A stretch of 64,000 nt of DNA, from contig CBDBDB010000016.1 in NCBI GenBank assembly GCA_965203495.1, positions 72,719-136,718 of the forward strand, read 5' to 3'. How positions within the stretch are numbered: the stretch's first letter is position 1; each line of letters begins with the position of its first letter. The notes under the pieces are model-generated. The model did no database searches, had not been told where the DNA came from, and saw only the letters and a list, made by a program, of their open reading frames with translations. Below are positions 39,669-57,094 of the stretch, in pieces. The position numbers and the translations under genes were made by a program. Origin of the DNA: Candidatus Multivorans sp. GTDB lineage: Bacteria > Acidobacteriota > Thermoanaerobaculia > Multivoradales > Multivoraceae.

Positions 39669-41762
39669 TCAGTGGACATCCGACCGCCCGGAGACGGGCG
39701 CTCGGACAGTGACGCTGGCGGCGCGGGGCGCGCCGCCAGGAAGGACGGTCGGCTGGCCGCGGGGCGCCTCTGGCGCGGACATGGCCAGACGTCGGTAGGC
39801 AGCCAGCGCCTCGAGCGGAAAGTACTGCGCGTAGCCGTGGTATCGGAGGTAGAACACGCGGGGGAAGCCCACGCCGGTCCAATCGCGGTCGTACCACGAA
39901 CCGTCGGCGCGTTGACGATCCTGCAGAAAGGCGACACCCCGGTCCAGCGCCGCCGCGGTCCGGGCCCCGTCGTCGCTCCGAAGACTCGATTCGAACAACG
40001 CGATCAGACCCATCATCGCCCAGGCGGTCTGCGAGGCCGTGCTGCGGCCGCGGCCCCTGAAGGCGGGATCCTCGTAGGAGCGAAGGGACTCGCCCCAACC
40101 GCCGTCGTCGTTCTGCGCCGCGAGCAGCCAGTTCCGGCCTAACCGGCACGCCCGGGTCACACGCTCCCCGGCGGCGCCGGGCGTTCGCGCCGCCAGCGGC
40201 GCCAGCGCGGAGAGAGCGAGCCAGGCGCCGTAGATGCCATTGGCGCCCCAGCGCCCCGGCCAGCTCCCATCCTTCTCCTGCTCCCGCAGCAGATAGTCCG
40301 TGGCGCGTCTGACCGGTCCATCGCCCGGATCGTGTCCATGCGCCAACAGCGCGCCGATCACGCGGGCGGTGATGTCGGGGGTGCTCGGATCGATCATCGC
40401 GTTGTGATCGGCGAAGGGAATGAGGGTCAGGACCTCCTTGTCGCAACAGCGGTCGAACGAGGCCCAGCCTCCGTCCGGGTTCTGCAGGCCAAGAAGCCAG
40501 CGCCGGCCGCGCGCGGCCGCGGCCTGCCGCCGCGCTTCCAGTTCGTCGGTCCGCCCGCGGACGGCCGCCAGAACCCGCAGGACTTCCGCCGTGTCGTCGC
40601 AGTCAGGGTAGAGATCGTTCCGGTACTCGAAACACCAGCCCCCCGGGGCGTCCTGAAGACTCTTCTCCCGCCAGTCGCCGGCAACCGTGATCTCGCGCTC
40701 GAGCAGCCACGTCAACGCTTCCTGGATGGGCGCCTCGTTCCCGTCCCGGTCCGCCGCGAGCAGGGCGCCCACCGACAGCGCCGTATCCCAGACCGGCGAC
40801 AGGCAAGGCTGGAGCCGTATCTCTCCGGCCTCCTCGATCTCGAACCGTTCGAGTTCCCTCAGCTGGCTCTGGACCAGGGGATGGCTCTCCTCGTAACCCA
40901 GGCAGCGAAGCGCGATGACGGCGTTGACCATCGCCGGGAAGATGGCGCCCAGACCGTCGGCGCCTTCGACGTGGACAACCAGCCACTCCTCGGCCTTCTT
41001 CAGAGCCGAGCGGCGCCACCCGGGCACGGGGCCCGCGGCTTCCACCAGCTTGATCAGGCCGTTGACGCCGGCGAACACACGAGACCAGAAGGACTCGTAG
41101 AGAGTCATCCGCCTGCCTCCCGGCCCGGAATCCGCCCGCAGCTCGTCAAGCTTCACGTCCAGCGGCACGCTCGGTCTGAGGGCCCAGATCACCGACAGAG
41201 GCACCACGATCGTCCGAGTCCAGGAGGACATCTCGTGGAGGTTGAAGTAGAACCAGCGCGGCAGCAGGATGAGCTCCGGGGGCACCGCGGGCGACCGCCG
41301 CCAGGTCCAGAGCCCGAAGATCGACAGGTAGAGCTTCGTGTACGAGTTGCACGCGCCCAGTCCGCCGGCCCGCAGAATCGCCCGGCGCGCATCGACCATC
41401 CTCGGCGATCGCGGATCGTCGCCGGCGAGCTTCAGACAGGCGTAGGCCTTGACCGAGGCGCTCGGGTCCGTCGGCCCGTCCGGGTAGATCGCCCAACCGC
41501 CGCCCTTCTGCTGTTGACCGCGCAGCCGTTCGCAACACTTCGAGACGCGCGGGTCGTCGCCGCGGCCCAGGAAGTGAAGCAGCAGAACGTACTCCGACTC
41601 GAGAATCGTGTCGCCCTCGAGTTCCGCGCACCAGTGGCCGTCTTCCCGGCGCTGGCCCAGCAGATTCCGGGCCGCCGCGTCGATCATCAGATCGATGACC
41701 CGCGGCGGCGGAGTCGGAGACGTCGCCGGGCGCTCGTGGAGTCCGCTGGTCAGGCTGTCCAT
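39669..41762 (-). CDS. shc: squalene-hopene cyclase
   Basis: 697 aa with the catalytic DXDD motif (DCDDTAEV), QW repeats and full-length collinearity with bacterial SHC (e.g. ...EDGHWCAELEGDTILESEYVLLLHFLG...). SD GGAGG lies inside the 3' end of the upstream gene. Confidence 0.92.
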   Translation of the reverse strand: MDSLTSGLHERPATSPTPPPRVIDLMIDAAARNLLGQRREDGHWCAELEGDTILESEYVLLLHFLGRGDDPRVSKCCERLRGQQQKGGGWAIYPDGPTDPSASVKAYACLKLAGDDPRSPRMVDARRAILRAGGLGACNSYTKLYLSIFGLWTWRRSPAVPPELILLPRWFYFNLHEMSSWTRTIVVPLSVIWALRPSVPLDVKLDELRADSGPGGRRMTLYESFWSRVFAGVNGLIKLVEAAGPVPGWRRSALKKAEEWLVVHVEGADGLGAIFPAMVNAVIALRCLGYEESHPLVQSQLRELERFEIEEAGEIRLQPCLSPVWDTALSVGALLAADRDGNEAPIQEALTWLLEREITVAGDWREKSLQDAPGGWCFEYRNDLYPDCDDTAEVLRVLAAVRGRTDELEARRQAAAARGRRWLLGLQNPDGGWASFDRCCDKEVLTLIPFADHNAMIDPSTPDITARVIGALLAHGHDPGDGPVRRATDYLLREQEKDGSWPGRWGANGIYGAWLALSALAPLAARTPGAAGERVTRACRLGRNWLLAAQNDDGGWGESLRSYEDPAFRGRGRSTASQTAWAMMGLIALFESSLRSDDGARTAAALDRGVAFLQDRQRADGSWYDRDWTGVGFPRVFYLRYHGYAQYFPLEALAAYRRLAMSAPEAPRGQPTVLPGGAPRAASVTVRAPVSGRSDVH

Positions 41763-43166: not shown

Positions 43167-43862
<696 letters not shown>

Positions 43863-44873: not shown

Positions 44874-46064
44874 ATGAAGAACCGTCACTCCACGACCGCC
44901 ATCGCAACCGCGGTGCTTCTCGCGCTGACCGCACTCGCCTGCGGGCCGGCCGAGGAAGCGCCCGAACCGATCGACCTCGAGGCGCCCCTCGCCGATCTCG
45001 TCGAAGGGTGGAACACGATCGCCCCGGGCGGGAGCACGACCTGCTCCGACGGTTCGCCGTTCCGGTTCTTCGTCCGCAAGGCCGATCCGACCCGACTCGT
45101 CTTTTATCTCCAGGGCGGCGGCGGCTGCTGGAACGCCGAGACCTGCGACCCGCGGGGCCGACCGACCTACACCACGACCGCCATCGAGGAGCTGCGTTCG
45201 CCGAGCGGCACGGAGCCCGAGGAAGGCGCCGTCCACGGCATCGCGGCATTCAACCACCCGGAGAACCCGTTCGCCGACCACAGCTTCGTCTTCGTGCCCT
45301 ACTGCACCGGCGACGTTCACATCGGCGACCGCGACATGGTCTACGACGTGCCGGCGACGGAGGAGGAGCCGGCGCGCCAGGTGACGATCCACCACCGCGG
45401 CTACACCAACGGTCGGGCGGCTCTCGACTGGACGCACGAGCGCTTCAAGGGTCCCGAGACGGTCTTCGTCACCGGTTCGAGCGCCGGCTCGATTCCCGCG
45501 CCGGTCTATGCCCGCCACTTCGCGGAGCGCTATCCGGCCGCCCGCGTCACCGCCCTGGGCGACGGCGCCGGCGGCTACCGCAACCTGACCGACAGCCGGC
45601 CTCACGAGTCCTGGGGGACGCTGACCGCCCTCTCCGGCTTCGAGGACATGAACGGGATCGACAGCGACGACTTCTCGTTCGAGACCCTGTACATCCAGGC
45701 TGCCAAGGCCCACCCCGAGGTCGTGTTCACGCGGTACGACACCGCCGAGGACGACGTACAGCTCCAGTTCCTGCGGCTCGCCGGCGCGAACGTCGACGAC
45801 GGTCTGCAGCCGCTGCTGGACGCGAACGAGGCCGACATCGATGCCGCGCTCGAGGGGCAGGACAACTACCGGAGCTACGTCGCCCCGGGCGAGTTGCACA
45901 CGATCATGCTGCGGCCCGAGTTCTACACGGTCGAATCGGACGGCGTCGCGATCCGCGACTGGGTCGCGGCGCTCGCCGCCGGCGAGCCGGTCGACGACGT
46001 CCACTGCGGCGATTGCGCGGTTTCGCCGGAACCGGAAACCGCCGGCGAAGCGACCGGACCGTAG
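44874..46064 (+). CDS. pectin acetylesterase (PAE/Notum-like) family hydrolase, lipoprotein
   Basis: Lipobox LTALAC-G. LVFYLQGGGGCWNAETC matches the PAE-family oxyanion/GGGxC motif. 396 aa. Confidence 0.7.
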   Translation: MKNRHSTTAIATAVLLALTALACGPAEEAPEPIDLEAPLADLVEGWNTIAPGGSTTCSDGSPFRFFVRKADPTRLVFYLQGGGGCWNAETCDPRGRPTYTTTAIEELRSPSGTEPEEGAVHGIAAFNHPENPFADHSFVFVPYCTGDVHIGDRDMVYDVPATEEEPARQVTIHHRGYTNGRAALDWTHERFKGPETVFVTGSSAGSIPAPVYARHFAERYPAARVTALGDGAGGYRNLTDSRPHESWGTLTALSGFEDMNGIDSDDFSFETLYIQAAKAHPEVVFTRYDTAEDDVQLQFLRLAGANVDDGLQPLLDANEADIDAALEGQDNYRSYVAPGELHTIMLRPEFYTVESDGVAIRDWVAALAAGEPVDDVHCGDCAVSPEPETAGEATGP

Positions 46065-46143: not shown

Positions 46144-47277
46144 CTACTCGGGGAAGAGACTCCGGTCGAGACCCGGGATGATCTTCAGCGCGTTGCGGAA
46201 GTAGATCTTCTCGAGCGCCTCTTCCGACAGGCCGAGGCCGTACATCTTCCAGTGGGCGTGGCGCTTCCGGTAGTAGTCGAAGTACTCGTCCCGCGTCTCC
46301 AGGACGCGGAAGTAGACGTGGTAGCCGTCGATCGGATCCCAGGAGTCCTTGCCCATCAGGACGCGGTCCTGGTACGTCTCCAGAAAGGCGGCGGCGGTGA
46401 TCGGCTGCCGGCCGAGTTCGGCGAGCACCGCGCCGAGTTCCGTATAGACGTTCGGCAGTTCGTCGAGCAGCTTGCCGAGCCGCTCCAGGTCGTTGCCGAA
46501 CCAGCCCAGGTGGGCGTTGATGAAGGTCGTGTTCGGGTGATTGCGGAACAGGTTGTGCTGCTCGGACATCGTCTGCTCGAACGAGGCGAAGCGCGCGGGG
46601 TCGTCGCGGCGACGGTTCGGAAACTGCTTGAGTTCGAGCCAGCGCTCGTTCCGCTCGTCCCACGGGTCCCAGAACGGCGACGGTTCACCGACGTGGATCA
46701 GGACCGGGATGCCAAGCGCTCCCGCCTTCTCCCACACCGGAGCGATCCGCGGGTCGTCCGCCGCCACCCTCTCGCCGTCGCTGTCGGTCTGGAACATGCT
46801 GAGGTTCTTGTAGATCTTCAGGCCCTGCGCGCCGGCCTCGACGTCCGCTTCAAGCTGCGCCGCCGCCTTCTCGCCCCAGCCGGGCTGACCGATGCCCGCG
46901 AAGTCGACGTTCGCGTAGACGGCGAACCGGCCGGGGTAGCGGCCCCTGGTCGCCGCAATGTTCGCCTTGAGGCGGTCGCCCGAACCGCCGCTCAGGTTGA
47001 CGAAGACAGCCATGTTCATCCTGTCCATCTCCTGGACCATTTCGTCGATCCGGGCCGGGTCGCCGCCGCGCAGGTGACCGTGAGCGTCGACGAAGGGGAA
47101 CTTCGCACGCGTCACCGGTCCGCCCGGCACGTTGAGCGTCGAACGCGGCTCCCAGGCCTCCACGGTCATCTCCTGGGCGGCGGCCGGAAGAGGCGGCGCG
47201 AGCAGCAGGGCGGCCAGCAGAAACCGCCGCGGATCGCCGATGCAGGTCGAGGCGTTCGAGCGATGGCAAACCGGCAT
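46144..47277 (-). CDS. amidohydrolase-2 family (PF04909-like TIM-barrel metal-dependent hydrolase), secreted
   Basis: Signal peptide, then FPFVDAHGHL metal-binding start. ATG at 47277 with a GGGGGAAAGAGA SD. 377 aa. Confidence 0.75.
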   Translation of the reverse strand: MPVCHRSNASTCIGDPRRFLLAALLLAPPLPAAAQEMTVEAWEPRSTLNVPGGPVTRAKFPFVDAHGHLRGGDPARIDEMVQEMDRMNMAVFVNLSGGSGDRLKANIAATRGRYPGRFAVYANVDFAGIGQPGWGEKAAAQLEADVEAGAQGLKIYKNLSMFQTDSDGERVAADDPRIAPVWEKAGALGIPVLIHVGEPSPFWDPWDERNERWLELKQFPNRRRDDPARFASFEQTMSEQHNLFRNHPNTTFINAHLGWFGNDLERLGKLLDELPNVYTELGAVLAELGRQPITAAAFLETYQDRVLMGKDSWDPIDGYHVYFRVLETRDEYFDYYRKRHAHWKMYGLGLSEEALEKIYFRNALKIIPGLDRSLFPE

Positions 47278-47390
47278 GGTCTCTTTCCCCCGGGCTTCCT
47301 GGTTCTGGTCCAAGCGGTCGGAGTCTACGGCAGGCTCCTCCCGGAGTTCTCGCGGACGGCAGGCGCCGTGCCCGCGTATACTCGCGGGCG

Positions 47391-47669
47391 ATGTCCATCG
47401 TGCGCGCCGCCGAAGTCGTGGTGTTGCTGTTCAGCGTGTACATCGCCTGCGGGCTGGCCTTCGCCCCCTTCTTTGTCTGGCGCGGGATCGGCCGCATCGA
47501 TCCCGCCGCACGATCGGCCGGTCTCGGCTTCCGGCTCATCATCCTCCCCGGCGTGGCCGCACTCTGGCCCGTCCTCCTGCCGAGGTGGCTTGCCGGCCGA
47601 CACTCCCCCTCGGAGCGCAACGCTCATCGCGACGCGGCCGCCGGTCGACCGAGGCAGGCCTCCGAGTGA
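47391..47669 (+). CDS. small 2-TM membrane protein (first gene of a translationally coupled operon)
   Basis: 92 aa. MSIVRAAEVVVLLFSVYIACGLAFAPFFVW... hydrophobic. Stop overlaps the next start (GTGA). TATACT hexamer 8 nt upstream of the ATG. Confidence 0.5.
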   Translation: MSIVRAAEVVVLLFSVYIACGLAFAPFFVWRGIGRIDPAARSAGLGFRLIILPGVAALWPVLLPRWLAGRHSPSERNAHRDAAAGRPRQASE

Positions 47670-47869
47670 TCCGCGGCCTGCGGCGGCGCCACCGCCTGGT
47701 CTGGACGGCGCTGTTCCCCGTCCTCGCGGTCCTGCTCGCCGCCGCCGTCCTCCTTCGTCCCGAGCCGCCGATCGTGGACGCCCTTCCCGAGCCGCGCGAC
47801 GCGGCGGCGGACGCGGTCGAGACCCGCGGCCGGGACGACACCGAACCATCGCGGAACGAGGATCCGTGA
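47666..47869 (+). CDS. small single-TM protein
   Basis: 67 aa. GTG start overlapping the previous stop. LVWTALFPVLAVLLAAAVLL TM helix. Stop overlaps the next GTG start. Confidence 0.4.
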   Translation: MIRGLRRRHRLVWTALFPVLAVLLAAAVLLRPEPPIVDALPEPRDAAADAVETRGRDDTEPSRNEDP

Positions 47870-48936
47870 GCGCCGAGTACCAGGCGGTCCTCTGGAACCG
47901 CAACAAGAAGCTCTACGACCTGACGATCGCGGCCGGCATCGTCCTGTTCCTCGGTCTCTTCGTCGGCGTCGGCGTCGCGACGCGTCCGCGGGCGACGATC
48001 GAAACCCTCCTGATCCGCGGCTTCGGCGCCGGCGCCCTGCTGCTGCTGCACGTCGTGCTCGCCATCGGACCGCTCTGCCGCCTCGAACCGCGGTTCCTGC
48101 CCCTGCTCTACAACCGCCGTCACCTCGGCGTCTGCGTGTTCCTGCTGGCTCTCGCCCACGGCGGGTTCTCGATCGTCCAGTTCCACGGCTTCGGCGTCCT
48201 GAAACCGCTCGTCAGCGTGCTGGCCAGCAACGGGAACTACGACAGCCTGACCCAGTTCCCGTTCCAGGCGCTCGGGCTTTCGGCGCTCGCGATCCTGTTC
48301 CTGCTGGCGGCGACCTCGCACGACTTCTGGCTCGCCAACCTCACCGCGCCGGTCTGGAAGTCGCTCCACATGCTGGTCTACGTCGCCTACGGACTGATCC
48401 TCGCGCACGTCGCGCTGGGCAGCCTGCAGACCCAGGAGCGACCGCCGGCGCTCGCCGCTCTGCTGGGGATCGGACTCGTCGGCGTCGCTTCGCTGCACCT
48501 CGCGGCCGGTTGGCGCGAACGCGGCCGGGCGCCGTTCGCCGCGGCGAACGGCGCCGCGGTCGACGTCTGCGCCGTCTCCGCCATTCCTCTCGACCGGGCG
48601 CGAATCGTCCTCCTCGGCGGCGAGCGGGTGGCGGTGTTTCGCTATCGCGCGGACGACGGCGAACGGATCGCGGCTGTCTCCAACGTCTGCCAGCATCAGA
48701 ACGGCCCGCTGGGAGAGGGCCGGGTCATCGACGGCTGCATCACCTGCCCGTGGCATGGCTACCAGTACCGTCCCGAGGACGGCTGCTCGCCGGCGCCGTT
48801 CACCGAGAAGGTCCCGACCTTCAACGTGCGGGTAAAGGATGGCCGGGTGCTGGTCGATCCGAGGCCGAACGCGCCTGGAACGCGTGCCGAGCCGGCGCGG
48901 CTCGACGCCGCGGCCCGCGACGAGGACGCTTCGTGA
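47866..48936 (+). CDS. fusion of a ferric-reductase-like (MsrQ/YedZ-type heme b) transmembrane domain and a C-terminal Rieske [2Fe-2S] domain
   Basis: N-terminal 6-TM region with conserved intramembrane His (LLLLHVVLAIG..., LALAHGGFS..., SLHMLVYVAYGLILAHVAL). C-terminal CQHQNGPLGEG...CITCPWHGYQY Rieske CXH...CXXH boxes. GTG at 47866 overlaps the upstream stop. Confidence 0.75.
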   Translation: MSAEYQAVLWNRNKKLYDLTIAAGIVLFLGLFVGVGVATRPRATIETLLIRGFGAGALLLLHVVLAIGPLCRLEPRFLPLLYNRRHLGVCVFLLALAHGGFSIVQFHGFGVLKPLVSVLASNGNYDSLTQFPFQALGLSALAILFLLAATSHDFWLANLTAPVWKSLHMLVYVAYGLILAHVALGSLQTQERPPALAALLGIGLVGVASLHLAAGWRERGRAPFAAANGAAVDVCAVSAIPLDRARIVLLGGERVAVFRYRADDGERIAAVSNVCQHQNGPLGEGRVIDGCITCPWHGYQYRPEDGCSPAPFTEKVPTFNVRVKDGRVLVDPRPNAPGTRAEPARLDAAARDEDAS

Positions 48937-49775
48937 TCGGCGCCCGCCGCGACGAGTTCCACGTCGGCCACGTCGACGAGACGCCGCCGGACGTTGCTCG
49001 GTTCGCTCGTCGCATCGCCATCGGCTTCCTGCTGCTGGCCGCCGTTCTCGGGGCCGTCGCGGCGCTGCTGCTGGAGCGCTTCGACGAAGGCGTGTTCGAG
49101 TACGGCGTCGTGGGGGACCACGCAGGCGAACTGCTCCTCGACCCCCATCCCCGCCTGATCGCGGCGGACGGACCGGCCGCGGGCTATCTGCTGGTCGGGA
49201 CGGGAAAACACGGGCTGGACGTGAGCGGCGAATCCAGCCCGCCCTGGACGCCCTCGTCGTCCAGGAAGGCCGAGATCTCGGCCACGCTGATCCGGAACCC
49301 GGAGGCGGCCATGCTCGAAGTGCATTCCCTCGAGTTTCCCGAGGGGCCCGAAGGCAAGGCCGACGCCGAACCCGCCGCCGAGCCGGGCGTCCCCGCCGAC
49401 CGCGGACAGACCCTGCTGGGGGAGATCGTCGACACGAAGTGCTACCTGAGCGCCATGAAGCCGGGCCGCGGCAAACCCCACCGGGACTGCGCCTCGCTCT
49501 GCATCCGCGGAGGCGTTCCGGCCGCGTTGCTGGTGCGGACGGAGAACGGCGAACGACGCCTGGTCCATCTGCTGGACCCGCGGGGCCAGGCGTTGGGGCA
49601 CGAGGTTCTCGACTGGGTGGGCGAACCGGTCGAGGCGCGGGGAACCCTGAGGCGGCGTGACGGCCGCTTCTTCCTGCGGACGTTCGGCATCCGGCCGACA
49701 CGCGCCCCCGCGGCGGCCCCCTTCGTCCTGCCGTCCAGCCGGACGCACCCGTCCCCGACCGCAAGCAGCCGATGA
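48933..49775 (+). CDS. hypothetical single-TM membrane-anchored protein
   Basis: 280 aa. GTG overlapping the Rieske stop (GTGA). TM helix IAIGFLLLAAVLGAVAALLL then soluble domain (…KCYLSAMKPGRGKPHRDCASLCIRGG…). Stop overlaps the olsB ATG (ATGA). Confidence 0.5.
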   Translation: MIGARRDEFHVGHVDETPPDVARFARRIAIGFLLLAAVLGAVAALLLERFDEGVFEYGVVGDHAGELLLDPHPRLIAADGPAAGYLLVGTGKHGLDVSGESSPPWTPSSSRKAEISATLIRNPEAAMLEVHSLEFPEGPEGKADAEPAAEPGVPADRGQTLLGEIVDTKCYLSAMKPGRGKPHRDCASLCIRGGVPAALLVRTENGERRLVHLLDPRGQALGHEVLDWVGEPVEARGTLRRRDGRFFLRTFGIRPTRAPAAAPFVLPSSRTHPSPTASSR

Positions 49776-50635
49776 CCGAGCCAGTCCGCGACAACGCCCC
49801 GGCGACCGGCCTCGGCGGCGGACCCATGCCCGGCCCCGAACACCTGCCCGACGGACAGATCGAAGCCGGCGCCTACCGACTGCGCTTCGCGCGCACGGCC
49901 GAGGACATCGACCGGCTGCTGGCCCTGCGCTTCGAGGTCTTCAACCTGGAACTGGGAGAAGGTCTCGACGAGTCCTGGGACACCGGCCGTGACACGGACG
50001 GTTTCGACGCAAGTTGCCACCACATGCTGGTCGAGCGGACGGACGGCACGATGATCGGCACCTACCGGATGCAGACGGCCGCCATGGCGGCCCGCGGCAA
50101 GGGCTTCTACTCGGCCACCGAGTACGACCTGGACGCCCTGCCCCGCGGCGTGCTCGACCGTTCGGTCGAGATCGGCCGCGCCTGCATCGAACGCCGCCAC
50201 CGGAAGCGGACGGTCCTGTTCCTGCTCTGGCGGGGCCTGGCCCGCTACATGGTCCACAATCGGCTCCGCTACCTGTTCGGTTGCTGCTCCCTGACCAGCC
50301 AGGACCAGGCCGCGGGCATCCGGCTCTACCGGCAGCTCGTCGCGGGCGGCAAGGTCAGGCCGGACCTCGACGTGCCGGTACTCGAGCACGCCCGCTGCGA
50401 GGCGCCGACCGAGATCGTCGAGAGCGGGCCGCGGACCGAGATGCCGCCCCTGTTCGCAACCTACCTGCGCTACGGCGCCCTCGTCTGCAGCCGGCCGGCG
50501 ATCGACCGCGACTTCAGAACGATCGACTACCTGGTGCTGATGGACACGGACACGCTCAGCCGGCGCATGCGGCTGATCTTCGGACTCGACCCGACGCCGG
50601 CAACCGAATCGGCGACGCGCGACGCCAGCGCCTGA
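49772..50635 (+). CDS. olsB: OlsB-like GNAT-fold N-acyltransferase (ornithine/amino-acid lipid N-acyltransferase family)
   Basis: 287 aa. YRLRFARTAEDIDRLLALRFEVFNLELGEG and downstream ...GTYRMQT...EIGRACIERRHRKR... follow the OlsB/GlsB (hemolysin-like acyltransferase) pattern. Followed by a PlsC-type acyltransferase. Confidence 0.78.
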   Translation: MTEPVRDNAPATGLGGGPMPGPEHLPDGQIEAGAYRLRFARTAEDIDRLLALRFEVFNLELGEGLDESWDTGRDTDGFDASCHHMLVERTDGTMIGTYRMQTAAMAARGKGFYSATEYDLDALPRGVLDRSVEIGRACIERRHRKRTVLFLLWRGLARYMVHNRLRYLFGCCSLTSQDQAAGIRLYRQLVAGGKVRPDLDVPVLEHARCEAPTEIVESGPRTEMPPLFATYLRYGALVCSRPAIDRDFRTIDYLVLMDTDTLSRRMRLIFGLDPTPATESATRDASA

Positions 50636-50639
50636 GGGA

Positions 50640-51455
50640 ATGCGCTTCCCTCGCGTCTGTCGGCTGGCCTGGCGGGGCCCGGCGCTCCTCCTGGCCACCC
50701 TGGCCGCATGGCTGCCGCTGCTGGTCCTGAAGCCGCTCCTCGCGCGCCGCCGCTACCCTACCTGGCGCAGGGTCCGCTCCGGCATCATGCGCCGCTGGGG
50801 CCAGGCGTGCCTGGCCGCGCTCGGCTGCCGGGTCACGGTCCGGGGAGCGCCGCCCCGGCCGCCCAGCCTGCTGGTCTCGAACCACGTCTCCTACGTCGAC
50901 ATCCTGGTGCTTGCCGCGCACTCGCCCGCCCGTTTCGTCTCCAAGTCCGAGGTCGGGGGGTGGCCCCTGGCCGGCTGGGTGTGCCGCACGGTCGACATCC
51001 TCTTCGTCGACCGCGGCCGGCGGCGCGACGTGACCCGGGTCGGCGATCAGATCGCCGAGGCCCTAGAGGCGGGCGATCCGGTCATCCTCTTCGCTGAAGG
51101 CACGTCGACGCCCGGCGATGCGGTGGCCACGCTCAAGCCCTCGTTGCTGGCGCCGGCCGCCGTCCAGGAACTCCCGGTGCACTGGGCGGTCCTGCGCTAC
51201 GAGACGCCGGACGACGAGGATCCCGCCTTCCTGAGCGTCGCCTGGTGGGGCGACATGCCGCTGACGCCGCACGCGCCCGAACTGCTCACGCTGCGCCGGA
51301 TCGACGCCGAGCTCGAGTTCGGGGCGGAGCCGCTTCATGACGCCGACCGCAAGGAACTCGCGCGTCGACTGCGACGACGCATGACGGCGGCGTTCCGGCC
51401 CATGGTTTCGAGCGAGGAAGCGGCCGCTTCGACCGGCGACCGGCGGTTTCCATGA
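50640..51455 (+). CDS. olsA: lyso-aminolipid O-acyltransferase, PlsC (1-acyl-sn-glycerol-3-phosphate acyltransferase) family, OlsA-like
   Basis: HX4D acyltransferase motif (SNHVSYVDILVL) and the FAEGTS block. N-terminal TM anchor. Immediately downstream of olsB. Confidence 0.75.
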   Translation: MRFPRVCRLAWRGPALLLATLAAWLPLLVLKPLLARRRYPTWRRVRSGIMRRWGQACLAALGCRVTVRGAPPRPPSLLVSNHVSYVDILVLAAHSPARFVSKSEVGGWPLAGWVCRTVDILFVDRGRRRDVTRVGDQIAEALEAGDPVILFAEGTSTPGDAVATLKPSLLAPAAVQELPVHWAVLRYETPDDEDPAFLSVAWWGDMPLTPHAPELLTLRRIDAELEFGAEPLHDADRKELARRLRRRMTAAFRPMVSSEEAAASTGDRRFP

Positions 51456-54076
51456 CGGTTTCCGGGAGGCGCCGGCACTGGCCTCGGGTCGCCCTCGGCG
51501 TCTACTGCGCGCTGCTGCTTGCTTCGACGGTCGTCCGGCTGGCCAGGGACGAACGCCAGCCGCCGCCGGAAGATCGCAGGACGATGGAGATCCCCACGCC
51601 GGACGGCGAAGGGACGTTGCTCATCGCCTGGAAGGAAACGTCTTCCCCGAACGAGGAGGCGCTGCCGCTCGTGCTGCTGCACGGATCGCCCGGCAGCGCC
51701 GGGAACTTCGACGGCCTGACGTCGCGGTCGACCCGGCGGCGGACCATCGCGCCGGACCTTCCCGGCTTCGGCGCCTCCGATCGCCGAGTGGCCGACTACT
51801 CCGCCCGCGGCCACGCGAGTTCCACGCTGAGGCTGCTCGATCGCCTGAACGTCGAGCGGTTTCACGTTCTCGGTTTCAGCATGGGCGGCGCGGTTGCGCT
51901 GCATCTCGCCGAACAGGCGCCCCGCCGGGTCGCCTCGGTCGTCCTGACGTCGGCGATCGGCGTTCAGGAGCTCGAGCTCCTGGGCGACTACCGGATGAAC
52001 CACGGGCTTCACCGTCTCCAGCTCGGCCTGTTGCGGGCGATCCGCCTTCTGGTCCCCCACTTCGGCGTGTTCGACAGCGCCGCCGCCTGGTCCTACGCCC
52101 GCAACTTCCACGACACGGACCAGCGGCCGCTGCGCGGCATCCTCGAGTCCCTCGACGCGCCGGTCTTCATTGTCCACGGCACGCGGGATCCCCTCGCGCC
52201 GGCCGCCGCGGCGCTGGAGCACCACCGCATCGTGCCGCAAAGCGAGTTGTGGATGCGTCCTGACAGCCACTTCTTCCTGTTCCGAGGCGGCGAAGAGCTT
52301 GCCGCCCGGATCGAGGACTTCCTGAGCCGCGTCGAGGCAGGCGAGGCAGCGACTCGCGCCGATGCCGAACCGGACCGGCTGCGCCGCGCCGCCCTGCCGT
52401 TCGACGACCGGAACCTCCCGCCGTTCGCCGGGCCCGCCCTGCTGATCGTCTTCCTGCTCCTCGTCTTCGCCGCGTACGTCAGCGAGGATCTGGCCGGCGT
52501 TGCCGCCGGCCTGCTCGCGGCCCAGGGCCGGCTCGACTTCACCGTTGCCGTCGCCGCCTGCTACGTCGGCAACCTGAGCAGCGACCTCGTCATTGCCTGG
52601 CTGGCGCGCGTTCTCGGCCGGCCGGCTCTCGGACTGCCGCCCTTCAAGTGGTGGGTCAGCGACGCTTCGATCGAAGAGGCTTCCGCCTGGCTGCGCCGGC
52701 GCGCCCTGGCGGTCGTGCTGGCCAGTCGGTTCCTGCCCGGAACGCGCCTGCCGATCTGTCTGGCCGCCGGCATCCTGCGCACGAGTCTGCCCCGGCTCTG
52801 CTTCTGTTTCGCGGTCGCCGGGGCAATCTGGACCCCGGCTTTCGTCGGCGTGAACGCCCTCCTGGGACGCGAAGCCGTCGCGCGCCTTGGCGGCCGGCTG
52901 CCGGGAGGGATCTTCGGCGCCGCGCTGGTCCTGGCGCTCGTCATCTTCACCGTGCGGAGCGTGGTCCTGCCTCTGCTCACGTGGCGGGGCCGCCGCCTCT
53001 GGCGCGGCCGCCTGCTGCGCATCCGGCGATGGGAGTTCTGGCCGACGTGGGCGTTCTATCCGCCGCTCGCGCTCCACATTCTCTGGCAGGGCCTGTTGCG
53101 GGGCAACCTGACCGCGTTCACCGCCATCAACCCCTCCATGCCGCTAGGCGGTCTGGTCGGTGAGTCGAAGAGCCACATCCTCGACGGACTGGCCGGCATC
53201 GGCGAGGCGCTGCCGGCCTGGAGGCGGCTCGGGACCGGACGCCCGGAGGAACGCGTCGCGGCTCTGCGCCGCTTCCTGAAGGACGAGAACCTCGACTACC
53301 CCGTCGTGCTCAAGCCGGACACCGGCGAACGCGGCCGCGGCGTCGCCGTAGCGCGCACCGAAGCCGACGCGGTAGCGTTCTTCGAGAAGACCCCGGGACC
53401 GGCGCTGGCGCAGGAGTTCGTCGACGGCGAGGAGTACGGCGTGTTCTGGGCCCGGCGCCCGGGCCGACGCAGCGGGCACGTCTTCTCGATCACGCACAAG
53501 GTGCGGCCCACCGTGACCGGCGACGGAACCAGCACGTTGGAGCGGTTGATCCTGAACGACCCGCGCGCGGTCGCCATCGCCCACGTGTACCGGCGGGAGC
53601 ATCCCGAGGCGGCGACGCACATCCCCGAGGTCGGCGAGAAAGTCGAGCTGACCCAGGTCGGCGCCCACTCGCGGGGGACGATCTTCCTGGACGCCAACGA
53701 CCTGCACACGTCGGACCTGGAGCGGGCGATAAACGCGATCTGCACCGCCTGCGTCGGCTTCGACTTCGGCCGCTTCGACCTGCGCGTCCCGAGCGCCGAG
53801 GCGCTGCGGCGCGGCGAGGGCATCCGCGTGCTGGAAGTGAACGGAGTGACGTCGGAAGCCACCCACATGTACGACCCGCGCTACGGTTTCCTCGCCGCCC
53901 ACGCGATCCTGCGACGGCAGTGGCAGCTGGCGTTCGACCTGGCGGAGGAACGCATCCGCGAAGGTGTTCGACCCGCCACGTTGAGCCGGATTCTCCACGC
54001 CGCGCGGGTTGAACGACGAGCCCGCCGCGGCGCGGCGCAAGCGCCCGCCCGCCGGGCGCGGCGCCGAACACGGTGA
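51452..54076 (+). CDS. three-domain fusion: N-terminal alpha/beta hydrolase, central DedA/VTT-family membrane domain, C-terminal ATP-grasp ligase-like domain
   Basis: aa 60-300: LLHGSPGSAGNF...GFSMGGAVALHLA...HGTRDPLAP (alpha/beta hydrolase). aa 330-480: SEDLAGVAAG...RFLPGTRLPICLAAGI (DedA/VTT signature). aa 560-840: YPVVLKPDTGERGRGVAVARTEADAVAFFE...LAQEFVDGEEYGVFW...VLEVNGV (ATP-grasp-like). ATG overlaps the olsA stop (ATGA). Confidence 0.75.
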   Translation: MTVSGRRRHWPRVALGVYCALLLASTVVRLARDERQPPPEDRRTMEIPTPDGEGTLLIAWKETSSPNEEALPLVLLHGSPGSAGNFDGLTSRSTRRRTIAPDLPGFGASDRRVADYSARGHASSTLRLLDRLNVERFHVLGFSMGGAVALHLAEQAPRRVASVVLTSAIGVQELELLGDYRMNHGLHRLQLGLLRAIRLLVPHFGVFDSAAAWSYARNFHDTDQRPLRGILESLDAPVFIVHGTRDPLAPAAAALEHHRIVPQSELWMRPDSHFFLFRGGEELAARIEDFLSRVEAGEAATRADAEPDRLRRAALPFDDRNLPPFAGPALLIVFLLLVFAAYVSEDLAGVAAGLLAAQGRLDFTVAVAACYVGNLSSDLVIAWLARVLGRPALGLPPFKWWVSDASIEEASAWLRRRALAVVLASRFLPGTRLPICLAAGILRTSLPRLCFCFAVAGAIWTPAFVGVNALLGREAVARLGGRLPGGIFGAALVLALVIFTVRSVVLPLLTWRGRRLWRGRLLRIRRWEFWPTWAFYPPLALHILWQGLLRGNLTAFTAINPSMPLGGLVGESKSHILDGLAGIGEALPAWRRLGTGRPEERVAALRRFLKDENLDYPVVLKPDTGERGRGVAVARTEADAVAFFEKTPGPALAQEFVDGEEYGVFWARRPGRRSGHVFSITHKVRPTVTGDGTSTLERLILNDPRAVAIAHVYRREHPEAATHIPEVGEKVELTQVGAHSRGTIFLDANDLHTSDLERAINAICTACVGFDFGRFDLRVPSAEALRRGEGIRVLEVNGVTSEATHMYDPRYGFLAAHAILRRQWQLAFDLAEERIREGVRPATLSRILHAARVERRARRGAAQAPARRARRRTR

Positions 54077-55957: not shown

Positions 55958-57094
55958 CTACGCCGACAACAGCGTCTCGACCAGCGTGGTCCAGTAGCGC
56001 ATGCCCAAGGGCAGGATGTCGTCGTTGAAGTCGTAGCGGGGGGTGTGGAGGCCGGCGCTGTCGCCGTTGCCCAGGAACATGAAGGCGCCGGGACGCTCCT
56101 GGAGCATGTAGGCGAAGTCCTCGGAACCCATGACGGGCGAGAGGTCCGTGGCGACGTCCTCGCCGACCTCCCGGGCGGCGTTCGCCGCCTTCTTCGTCTG
56201 CTCGGCGTGGTTCACGGTGGCCGGGTAATAGCGGCGATACTGGAACTCGAAGCCGGCGCCGTGGGCCGCGCAGATGCCGCCGCCGATCTGGCGCATCCGC
56301 CGTTCAACGAGCTGCTGCACTTCGGGCAGAAACGCCCGGACGCAGCCGCCGTGAACGACGCGGCTCGGGATGACGTTGTCCGCGCGACCGCCGTGAACGC
56401 GTGTCACGGTGATCACCGCGCTGTTCAGCGGGTCCACGTTGCGTGCAACGATCGTCTGCAGGGCGAGAACGATCTCGGCCGCGACCGGAATCGGGTCCAC
56501 CGTACCGTGGGGGAACGCCGCGTGGCCGCCGGCGCTGGTGACGGCAAACTCGAACACGTCGATCGCGGCCATCAGCGGCCCGGCGCGCAGGCCGAAGGCG
56601 CCGACTTCCATTCCCGGGTAGTTGTGGACGCCGTAGACCTCCTCGGCGGGGAACCGCTCGAACAGGCCCTCCTCGATCATCACGCGGGCGCCGCCATCCT
56701 TCTCTTCGGCGGGCTGGAAGACGAAGTAGACCGTGCCGTCGAAGGACCGGTTCCGGCTCAGATGGCTCGCCGCGCCGAGCAGCATCGCCGTGTGGCCGTC
56801 GTGACCGCAGGCGTGCATCCTGCCGGGGTTCCGGGAGCGGTGCTCGAAGTCGTTCTCCTCCTCGATCGGCAGCGCGTCCATGTCCGCGCGGAGCGCGATG
56901 CCGCGATCCGACGAGCCGGACTTCAACACGCCGACAACGCCGGTGCCAGCAAGACCGCGGTGGACCTCGATGTCGCCGAACGACTCGAGCAGCGCCGCCA
57001 CCTTCCGGCTGGTTTCCACTTCCTCGAACGCGAGCTCGGGGTGTCGGTGGAAGTCCCGCCTCCAGGACCTCATCTGTTCGTGCAGTGGATCCAT
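55958..57094 (-). CDS. M20D family amidohydrolase (hippurate hydrolase/aminoacylase-like)
   Basis: 378 aa starting MDPLHEQMRSWRRDFHRHPELAFEE (typical M20D start). Metal ligands in ...ADMDALP...HACGHDGH... and the C-terminal GSEDFAYM block. Confidence 0.85.
   Translation of the reverse strand: MDPLHEQMRSWRRDFHRHPELAFEEVETSRKVAALLESFGDIEVHRGLAGTGVVGVLKSGSSDRGIALRADMDALPIEEENDFEHRSRNPGRMHACGHDGHTAMLLGAASHLSRNRSFDGTVYFVFQPAEEKDGGARVMIEEGLFERFPAEEVYGVHNYPGMEVGAFGLRAGPLMAAIDVFEFAVTSAGGHAAFPHGTVDPIPVAAEIVLALQTIVARNVDPLNSAVITVTRVHGGRADNVIPSRVVHGGCVRAFLPEVQQLVERRMRQIGGGICAAHGAGFEFQYRRYYPATVNHAEQTKKAANAAREVGEDVATDLSPVMGSEDFAYMLQERPGAFMFLGNGDSAGLHTPRYDFNDDILPLGMRYWTTLVETLLSA

Follow-up and report, generated by a model that had tools for sequence, protein, structure and literature searches.

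How would electrons pass through a protein that joins a ferric-reductase-type membrane domain to a Rieske [2Fe-2S] domain, and what would receive them? The question is raised by a gene of Candidatus Multivorans sp., here called C, which lies on contig CBDBDB010000016.1 in a stretch of 64,000 nt with about 70% G+C (the window, by which we mean this whole stretch). C shares an operon with three genes here called A, B and D and with aminolipid genes. An earlier note on this DNA had proposed that the fusion is a membrane electron-transfer module feeding a lipid oxygenase or desaturase, or else a self-contained lipid-modifying redox enzyme. We lean, with moderate confidence, towards a different answer: C would be a flavocytochrome b of the STEAP/MsrQ type carrying a Rieske domain, and it would form the core of a four-protein electron module of the inner membrane together with A, B and D. 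The features of gene C that carry this reading are as follows (aa, amino acids).

47866..48936, forward strand: gene C, ferric-reductase-type membrane domain fused to a Rieske domain, 356 aa, GTG start
47866..48525, forward strand: six-helix ferric-reductase (MsrQ/STEAP-type) membrane domain, aa 1-220
48157-48159 and 48406-48408, forward strand: predicted outer heme ligands H98 and H181, by alignment to MsrQ
Within the membrane domain: predicted inner cofactor pocket R84, R85, L147, S151, W164 and H168, by alignment to MsrQ
48559..48855, forward strand: Rieske [2Fe-2S] domain, ferredoxin type, predicted to be cytoplasmic, aa 232-330
48688-48696, forward strand: Rieske box 1, C275-Q-H277
48745-48756, forward strand: Rieske box 2, C294-P-W-H297

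The fusion itself was confirmed by Pfam, by the conserved Rieske boxes and by the N-termini of homologues. In Pfam, aa 52-178 matched Ferric_reduct (PF01794; E 3.3e-12, score 47 bits, cut-off 28) and aa 232-319 matched Rieske (PF00355; E 2.2e-15, score 56.7 bits, cut-off 20.3). The GTG start shares 4 bp (GTGA) with the stop of the upstream gene, and homologues align from the first residue of C, with M1, S2, Y5, W10 and N11 invariant. These two observations fix the start at 47866. A 1031-aa open frame from 45841 on the forward strand was rejected as a high-GC artefact, the homologue N-termini beginning at 47866. Such spurious long frames overlay real genes on both strands (1031 aa on the forward and 762 aa on the reverse strand across C), and since a base composition of this kind yields them, the length of an open reading frame (ORF) alone is misleading in this window. 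No FAD_binding or NAD_binding domain of Pfam matched C, and its C-terminal domain is the Rieske domain. NCBIfam returned sub-threshold matches to MsrQ, the ferric-reductase part of MamZ, Rieske ferredoxins and NirD; the score against the MsrQ equivalog NF003831 was 41.1 bits, below the cut-off of 130.

The Rieske domain is of the ferredoxin type. The nearest relatives of aa 232-330, by sequence and by structure, were the soluble ferredoxins of ring-hydroxylating oxygenase systems (E about 2e-8, Foldseek target TM-score about 0.8), among them BphF/BphA3, CarAc, TodB and the NDO ferredoxin, which have the same CxH...CxxH pattern. When the whole model of C was compared with the PDB in Foldseek, the top 50 were all Rieske matches. 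The two boxes of C are separated by 16 residues, and judged by the cluster motif, both C and the oxygenase ferredoxins are without the disulfide-forming cysteines of bc1-type Rieske proteins. Residue conservation in C was measured in 83 full-length representatives of 50%-identity clusters. The cluster ligands C275, H277, C294 and H297 were conserved in 88-93% of them, the exceptions being mostly alignment gaps; a failure of the boxes to persist in homologues, which the earlier note had named as fatal to its idea, was thus not observed. Only about 35 residues follow the Rieske fold, which leaves no catalytic domain in C. Consistently, no oxygenase catalytic domain with a 2-His-1-carboxylate iron was detected in C by Pfam, and the oxygenase matches covered the Rieske part only. 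A ferredoxin-type Rieske domain without a catalytic domain excludes a self-contained lipid-modifying enzyme.

On which side of the membrane does the cluster lie? The mean number of Lys and Arg residues across the family was 3.3 at the N-terminus, 4.0 in loop 2-3, 1.8 in loop 4-5 and 4.1 after the sixth transmembrane helix (TM6), and 0.5, 0.9 and 0.7 in loops 1-2, 3-4 and 5-6 on the other side. From this distribution C was predicted to have both termini inside, which would put the Rieske domain in the cytoplasm. A cytoplasmic Rieske domain fits other ferric-reductase-type proteins as well as the cytoplasmic assembly of Fe-S clusters.

The membrane domain has the six-helix STEAP/NOX-core fold (PF01794 superfamily), and the closest solved folds were STEAP metalloreductases. 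When this domain alone was searched against the sequences of the PDB, no match was found even at E 10. Its description in the earlier note as MsrQ/YedZ-type holds: C belongs to that branch, and the membrane domain is conserved. It is 28% identical to E. coli MsrQ (b1972, MG1655 record). The MsrQ heme ligands H91 and H164 aligned with H98 and H181 of C, one histidine each in TM3 and TM5, and the FMN pocket of MsrQ (R77, R78, L131, S135, W147 and H151) was identical to R84, R85, L147, S151, W164 and H168 of C. The heme ligands and the six pocket residues were all at least 93% conserved in the C family (H98 94%, H181 96%); taken together, H86, H98, H152, H168 and H181 were conserved at 93-96%. 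In MsrQ, R77 and R78 are essential to FMN binding, since the R77A and R78A variants lose FMN, and H151A destabilises it, according to PMC12525009.

The earlier note had offered histidine spacing consistent with bis-heme ligation as a check on its idea, and the outcome was divided. The TM5 pair H168/H181 has the canonical NOX spacing of 13. In TM3, an arginine (R84) and not a histidine stands 14 residues ahead of H98, and the conserved H86 lies two residues off register, so that C does not show the four-histidine bis-heme pattern of NOX and FRE. Arginine in place of the first canonical NOX histidine is described as the signature of the YedZ/STEAP branch in PMC3591440. One heme plus a flavin therefore appears likelier than two hemes, given this arginine and the retention of all six FMN-pocket residues of MsrQ. 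Two extra histidines conserved in the C family, H86 and H152, line the inner pocket, and H152 adjoins a serine that in MsrQ may contact the flavin N5. These observations correct the cofactor assumption of the earlier note but do not refute a role of C in electron transfer.

How widespread is the fusion? A search of 5.8 billion proteins returned at least 8000 clusters, and the two-domain architecture was common to all 120 of the matches listed; source names among these included "Rieske 2Fe-2S domain-containing protein" and labels of the YedZ/NirD type. An exhaustive HMMER search found 257 representatives of 50%-identity clusters at E <1e-30. In a scan of one genome per species, relatives of C with 59-89% identity were present in more than 549 species genomes, mostly Acidobacteriota. 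The relatives listed span all classes of Acidobacteriota, together with metagenome-assembled genomes (MAGs) labelled Gemmatimonadota, Planctomycetota, Calditrichia, KSB1 and Lentisphaerae. Identity of C was about 60-70% between Acidobacteriota classes and against the contigs labelled as other phyla. Constraint on the family is strong. It is common in soil- and sponge-associated Acidobacteriota, and one locus (L035) belongs to a culturable carrier, 'Acidobacteria bacterium Mor1' (CP011806). The window itself falls in the clade of Thermoanaerobaculia and Candidatus Multivorans. The phylum labels were taken from MAG records, some of which are probably mis-binned. In two MAG contigs labelled 'uncultured Heliomicrobium sp.' (L017 and L019), C was 67-68% identical and the gene order was unchanged; both bins look mis-binned, and for this reason the phylum labels of the genome scan need to be read with care.

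If C does not act alone, its partners should be found beside it. We examined 80 related loci and took as a distant set the 44 whose identity was below 75% and whose flanks reached 5 kb or more on both sides of the module. Recurrent neighbours were identified by clustering of ORFs, with Pfam used to annotate the larger clusters. In the window, seven genes from 47391 to 54076 form one operon. At five of its six junctions the start of one gene overlaps the stop of the gene before it by 4 bp, and at the remaining one 4 bp separate the two genes; the upstream flanking gene is divergent, the downstream one convergent. The genes A, B, C and D are joined to one another by 4-bp overlaps. The partners of C are as follows.

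47391..47669, forward strand: gene A, small membrane protein, 92 aa, first in the operon, stop overlapping the start of B by 4 bp
47666..47869, forward strand: gene B, short form, 67 aa, one transmembrane helix, 4-bp GTGA overlaps with A and with C
48933..49775, forward strand: gene D, membrane-anchored periplasmic protein, 280 aa, with a helix at about aa 19-46 and two OB-like β-barrels
49440-49502, forward strand: the D motif GE.VD.KC170....M175.PG.....H183..C186A..C190..GG

Gene A lay upstream of C in 79 of the 80 loci and D immediately downstream in 77, and in the distant set each of the two was near the module in 43 of 44. B was always present in the 80 loci in variable form. It has 50-70 aa in some lineages and 150-190 aa in others (both forms were read in 16 loci). 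The short form has the N-terminal motif MIR.LR.RHR; the long form adds a periplasmic domain with the consensus PD.L.YW ... LLG ... LYSLAH (44 long forms). Gene A has the consensus D-P..A...GFRLLILPG.AALWPLLL.RW ... E.NAHR (65 distant loci). Neither A, nor either form of B, nor D matched any family of Pfam or NCBIfam, and their homologues are all named "hypothetical protein".

Gene fusions also tie these proteins together. Among the 83 representatives of C, 38 were C-D fusions of about 600 aa, with one extra transmembrane helix and then the D domain after C. Homologues of D occurred only alone or fused to C, and never with another partner domain. In one locus (L089, 6283-6999) A and B formed a single 238-aa protein beside a fused C-D gene, so that the module had collapsed to two genes. 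A, B, C and D constitute an autonomous unit, as aminolipid genes are absent nearby in about half of the loci.

The strongest candidate for the periplasmic terminus of the wire is the constant partner D. Its N-terminus is basic, would lie on the cytoplasmic side and has a conserved F-Y-V-G-Y motif. Because this basic segment precedes a single helix, the body of D was assigned to the periplasm, and the extra helix of the C-D fusions agrees with this assignment. Among 117 diverse members, G163, C170, M175, P177, H183, C186, A187 and G193 were invariant, C190 was 99% conserved, and E164, D167, K169 and K92 were conserved at 98-99%. The Cys3-His-Met motif is located on a helix-loop-helix insertion in the second barrel. 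This site could bind a metal, be a redox-active thiol centre or merely be structural. D showed no CxxC motif, no thioredoxin fold and no resemblance to MsrP. When its profile was compared with the PDB, a segment of superoxide reductase appeared at a non-significant E of 0.15, and it was rejected as a chance match.

The following path may be proposed on these grounds. The cytoplasmic [2Fe-2S] cluster would exchange electrons with the inner site, which by homology to MsrQ and STEAP would be a flavin; electrons would move on to the one outer heme b (H98/H181) and finally reach D, or a substrate that D holds, at the periplasmic Cys3-His-Met site. In such a scheme the Rieske domain would replace the NAD(P)H dehydrogenase domain of NOX and STEAP, or the flavin reductase Fre of MsrQ, and D would replace MsrP. 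We infer outward flow because all characterised relatives move electrons outward and because ferredoxin-type Rieske clusters typically have low potentials. The interpretation given in the earlier note is supported in part. The wiring, though, would cross the membrane, away from a lipid oxygenase on the cytoplasmic face, because the constant and often fused partner D is periplasmic.

Among known systems MsrQ (YedZ) comes closest. It too has a six-helix domain with heme and FMN-pocket residues and both termini inside, and in both cases electrons are expected to leave the cytoplasm for a periplasmic partner whose gene is adjacent. C differs from it in the fused Rieske domain, where MsrQ uses the free flavin reductase Fre; in its periplasmic partner, which is D and not the molybdoenzyme MsrP; and in having two more small membrane proteins (A and B) as partners, further conserved histidines (H86 and H152) and a score far below the equivalog cut-off. 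STEAP2-4 have an N-terminal NADPH-binding domain of the F420 type, whereas C has a C-terminal [2Fe-2S] Rieske domain, and STEAP proteins have glutamine at the position where C (H168) and MsrQ have histidine; we know of no periplasmic partner protein for STEAP. The NOX proteins (NOX5, SpNOX and NOX2) have four histidines, two hemes and an FAD/NADPH dehydrogenase domain, whereas in C the first TM3 histidine is arginine and the appended domain is Rieske. The oxygenase ferredoxins, in contrast to the membrane-cytochrome-tethered domain of C, are free soluble shuttles (about 105 aa) whose genes accompany those of a reductase and a terminal oxygenase; neither of these was among the recurrent ORF-cluster neighbours of C.

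Among single-protein wires that take cytoplasmic electrons to the outside of a membrane, NOX, STEAP, FRE and MsrQ are the main ones known, and to our knowledge nearly all characterised ferric-reductase-type proteins draw their electrons from a flavin or NAD(P)H module. The C family would add an iron-sulfur entry domain and three wholly unannotated partner families, in soil- and sponge-associated Acidobacteriota, bacteria with a little-understood envelope. The acceptor of C, once found, would define a new periplasmic redox activity and could account for the frequent placement of the module beside phosphorus-free aminolipid genes.

The bare combination of domains is not new. A 2013 survey lists Rieske among the domains fused to bacterial ferric-reductase domains and shows it as model M4 of its Figure 3, whose legend pairs it with an FMN module (Zhang et al. 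2013, PMC3591440). That survey is purely a domain catalogue and does not cover function, partners, neighbourhood or cofactor prediction (PMC3591440). In the searchable literature, the domain pair or gene cluster was found only in this catalogue, and nothing was found on function, partners or neighbourhood. What is new here is the A-B-C-D module, the C-D and A-B fusions, the Cys3-His-Met motif of D, the cofactor prediction of the MsrQ type and the quantified, non-obligatory link to aminolipid genes.

Several observations weigh against the favoured reading of C as a flavocytochrome at the core of a four-protein module. No catalytic fold can be recognised in D, whose Cys/His/Met site could have a structural role. 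With the extra H86 and H152 at the inner pocket, there could be a second heme or some other arrangement. That A, B, C and D form a complex is something we infer from gene order and fusions alone. Since the recurrent ORF-cluster neighbours include no reductase able to load the Rieske cluster, the direction of electron flow is not fixed. Half of the loci have no lipid genes nearby, so that the link to lipids may reflect lineage-specific placement and not function. Finally, the probable mis-binning of some MAG records affects the apparent phylum range.

What, then, do the lipid genes tell us? Downstream of D, the operon of the window continues with three genes.

49772..50635, forward strand: OlsB-like N-acyltransferase, GNAT, Acetyltransf_5 (Pfam E 3.9e-28), 287 aa, start overlapping the stop of D by 4 bp
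50640..51455, forward strand: OlsA-like (PlsC-family) O-acyltransferase, 271 aa (Pfam Acyltransferase E 1.9e-18)
51452..54076, forward strand: triple fusion of α/β-hydrolase, VTT/DedA and ATP-grasp parts (Pfam and NCBIfam), 874 aa, last gene of the operon

The OlsB-like gene scored 126 bits against the NCBIfam OlsB models (E 1e-36), below the equivalog cut-offs of 320-350, and the OlsA-like gene 130-135 bits against the OlsA models (E 3e-39, cut-off 300). In the 874-aa protein, Pfam recognised Abhydrolase_1 (E 7e-27), VTT_dom (E 2e-10) and, weakly, ATP-grasp_3, and NCBIfam recognised an ATP-grasp segment like that of cyanophycin synthetase. This fusion may modify or flip the head group of the aminolipid. 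Its hydrolase, VTT/DedA and ATP-grasp parts are separate genes in some lineages.

An OlsB-like gene was found within 8 kb of the module in 43 of the 80 loci and in 22 of the 44 distant ones. The 874-aa protein or its ATP-grasp part was near the module at a similar frequency (42 of 80), an ATP-grasp gene being present in 25 of the distant loci. The OlsA-like gene was rarer (26 of 80 and 7 of 44). The placement of the OlsB-like gene in the distant set varied: it was directly downstream on the same strand in 13 loci and on the opposite strand in eight, seven of these downstream, and in one locus (L027) it was upstream. By MAG labels, the loci with this gene belong to Acidobacteriota, Gemmatimonadota, Planctomycetota, Calditrichia and KSB1; most Blastocatellia loci have no aminolipid genes near the module. 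By our own estimate, chance alone would place a single-copy gene within 16 kb in well under 1% of genomes. The association with aminolipid genes is therefore real, though not obligatory. The operon placement claimed in the earlier note accordingly stands for the window, where all seven genes share one tight operon; the aminolipid neighbourhood recurs in half of the distant loci, also where gene order or strand differs.

Other genes recurred in the same neighbourhoods: a DinB-like protein in 28 loci, a TANGO2-like protein (PF05742) starting with Met-Cys in 21, a DoxX-like protein in 21, a YHS-like protein in 15 and an SDR gene directly upstream in 17. In Terriglobia the SDR gene stands directly upstream of gene A. 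In one locus (L041, 9896-14929), and also in L025, L032, L036 and L071 (about 10.7-12.2 kb), the aminolipid-side cluster occurs together with the DinB-like, TANGO2-like, DoxX-like and YHS genes. It looks as though the aminolipid-side genes and these five families belong to a larger conserved cluster. Other acyl-metabolism genes were seen around more divergent forms of the module: Acyl_transf_3 and an esterase flank it on a contig with a D protein that carries the NCBI label Aliidongia sp.; genes of KASIII-like, AMP-binding, reductase and PlsC-type acyltransferase proteins flank one fused form; and an SDR gene flanks another fused C-D form.

On a distant low-GC contig (L088, 4612-9436), B-C-D lies between PstS-like and PstB-like phosphate-transport genes and phoU. 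This arrangement hints at a link to phosphate starvation, which would fit phosphorus-free aminolipids, and we regard it as a single-case lead; genes for PhoU and PstS were not found in the 80 loci or in the window.

As the module sits with the aminolipid cluster in about half of the lineages, its periplasmic redox step probably serves envelope lipids or envelope homeostasis. A more specific version is possible and is put forward tentatively: a conduit from the Rieske cluster through flavin and heme b to the OB-fold protein D would drive a redox step at the outer face of the inner membrane, either on phosphorus-free aminolipids or a lipid-linked small molecule from the adjacent cluster (OlsB-like, ATP-grasp, DinB-like and TANGO2-like proteins), or in their protection. 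Were this so, the module would be a kind of bacterial transmembrane redox conduit not recognised before, and D, with its new Cys3-His-Met centre, would found a family of periplasmic redox or metal-binding proteins.

Other end points have to be weighed against this. The one that survives best is a STEAP-like metal reductase, in which Fe(III) or Cu(II) would be reduced in the periplasm and D would bind the metal or hand it on through the Cys3-His-Met site. The nearest solved folds are indeed STEAP metalloreductases, and Cys, His and Met, invariant in D, are typical ligands of soft metals. The YHS-domain gene in 15 loci and a ChaN-like Cofac_haem_bdg gene near the module in L089 point in the same direction. 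However, no metal transporter (FeoB, VIT1 or a P-type ATPase) appeared as a conserved neighbour, and the commonest neighbours are lipid genes and not metal genes. We consider this end point rather unlikely.

The proposal of the earlier note, that the fusion donates electrons to a lipid oxygenase or desaturase acting on an OlsBA-type aminolipid at the cytoplasmic face, draws on the nearness of the Rieske domain to oxygenase-feeding ferredoxins, on the shared operon with OlsB- and OlsA-like genes and on the aminolipid neighbourhood in about half of the distant loci. In addition, the hydroxylases for some ornithine-lipid hydroxylations are still unidentified according to PMC12971839. But no desaturase, fatty-acid hydroxylase or LpxO/OlsC-type enzyme was among the recurrent neighbours in the ORF clustering (DinB-like, TANGO2-like, DoxX, YHS, SDR and ATP-grasp proteins), a result obtained without a direct search for those families. 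Moreover, the universal and often fused partner is the periplasmic D, a soluble ferredoxin needs no transmembrane heme domain, and half of the loci have no aminolipid genes. We therefore did not retain the oxygenase or desaturase as the recipient of the electrons, and judge this proposal unlikely.

An MsrPQ-like role in repair or thiol redox seems quite improbable to us. Electrons passed to D would keep periplasmic thiols, methionines or a lipid-linked thiol reduced, and the cysteines of D would be redox-active. This would agree with the homology of the membrane domain to MsrQ, its heme and FMN residues included, and with the three cysteines of D, invariant or, for C190, nearly so. DoxX-like and DinB-like genes, whose families are often tied to thiol chemistry, recur nearby, but in some lineages only, and D has neither CxxC, nor a thioredoxin fold, nor a resemblance to MsrP. 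With E. coli MsrP as the tblastn query, a true MsrP homologue was found in one of the 80 loci and none in the window; a partnership of C with MsrP was rejected because the homologue is missing from the other 79. The earlier note had contrasted C with the usual pairing of such domains with molybdoenzymes, and rightly so, as C has no molybdoenzyme partner. The sole true homologue (L049, 12076-12993), 52% identical to the E. coli protein, is encoded about 3 kb downstream of the module and is probably accompanied by an MsrQ of its own. Metal reduction and MsrPQ-like repair would be two end points of one and the same wiring, and both are viable.

Very improbable is a reverse flow, from a periplasmic donor or quinol through the heme to the cytoplasmic Rieske domain and on to a cytoplasmic acceptor: it would account for the lack of a reductase for the Rieske cluster among the recurrent neighbours, and ferric-reductase-type domains are simple wires, reversible in principle, but low Rieske potentials would make uphill inward transfer unlikely, and characterised NOX, FRE, STEAP and MsrQ proteins all work outward (PMC3591440, PMC12525009).

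Some further features of the window were recorded around the operon. No Rfam family matched within 46-55 kb of the window, and in a scan for promoters and terminators the signal never exceeded the shuffled background. Just upstream of the operon lie genes of a pectin-acetylesterase-family protein (44874-46064, forward strand) and an Amidohydro_2 protein (46144-47313, reverse strand), an arrangement whose conservation does not extend beyond the close Multivorans/Thermoanaerobaculia clade (14 loci). A cytochrome c assembly protein similar to CcmC (43167-43862, reverse strand; Cytochrom_C_asm E 2e-27) is encoded between a GFO_IDH_MocA oxidoreductase and a luciferase-like monooxygenase. A squalene-hopene cyclase with both Pfam domains (39669-41762, reverse strand; E about 1e-110) is encoded 6 kb upstream, so that this genome probably makes hopanoids. 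On the other side, 2 kb downstream of the operon and past a phasin-like gene and an α/β-hydrolase, lies an M20-family peptidase (55958-57094, reverse strand). The M20 family includes aminoacylases, and this peptidase could act on N-acyl amino acids.

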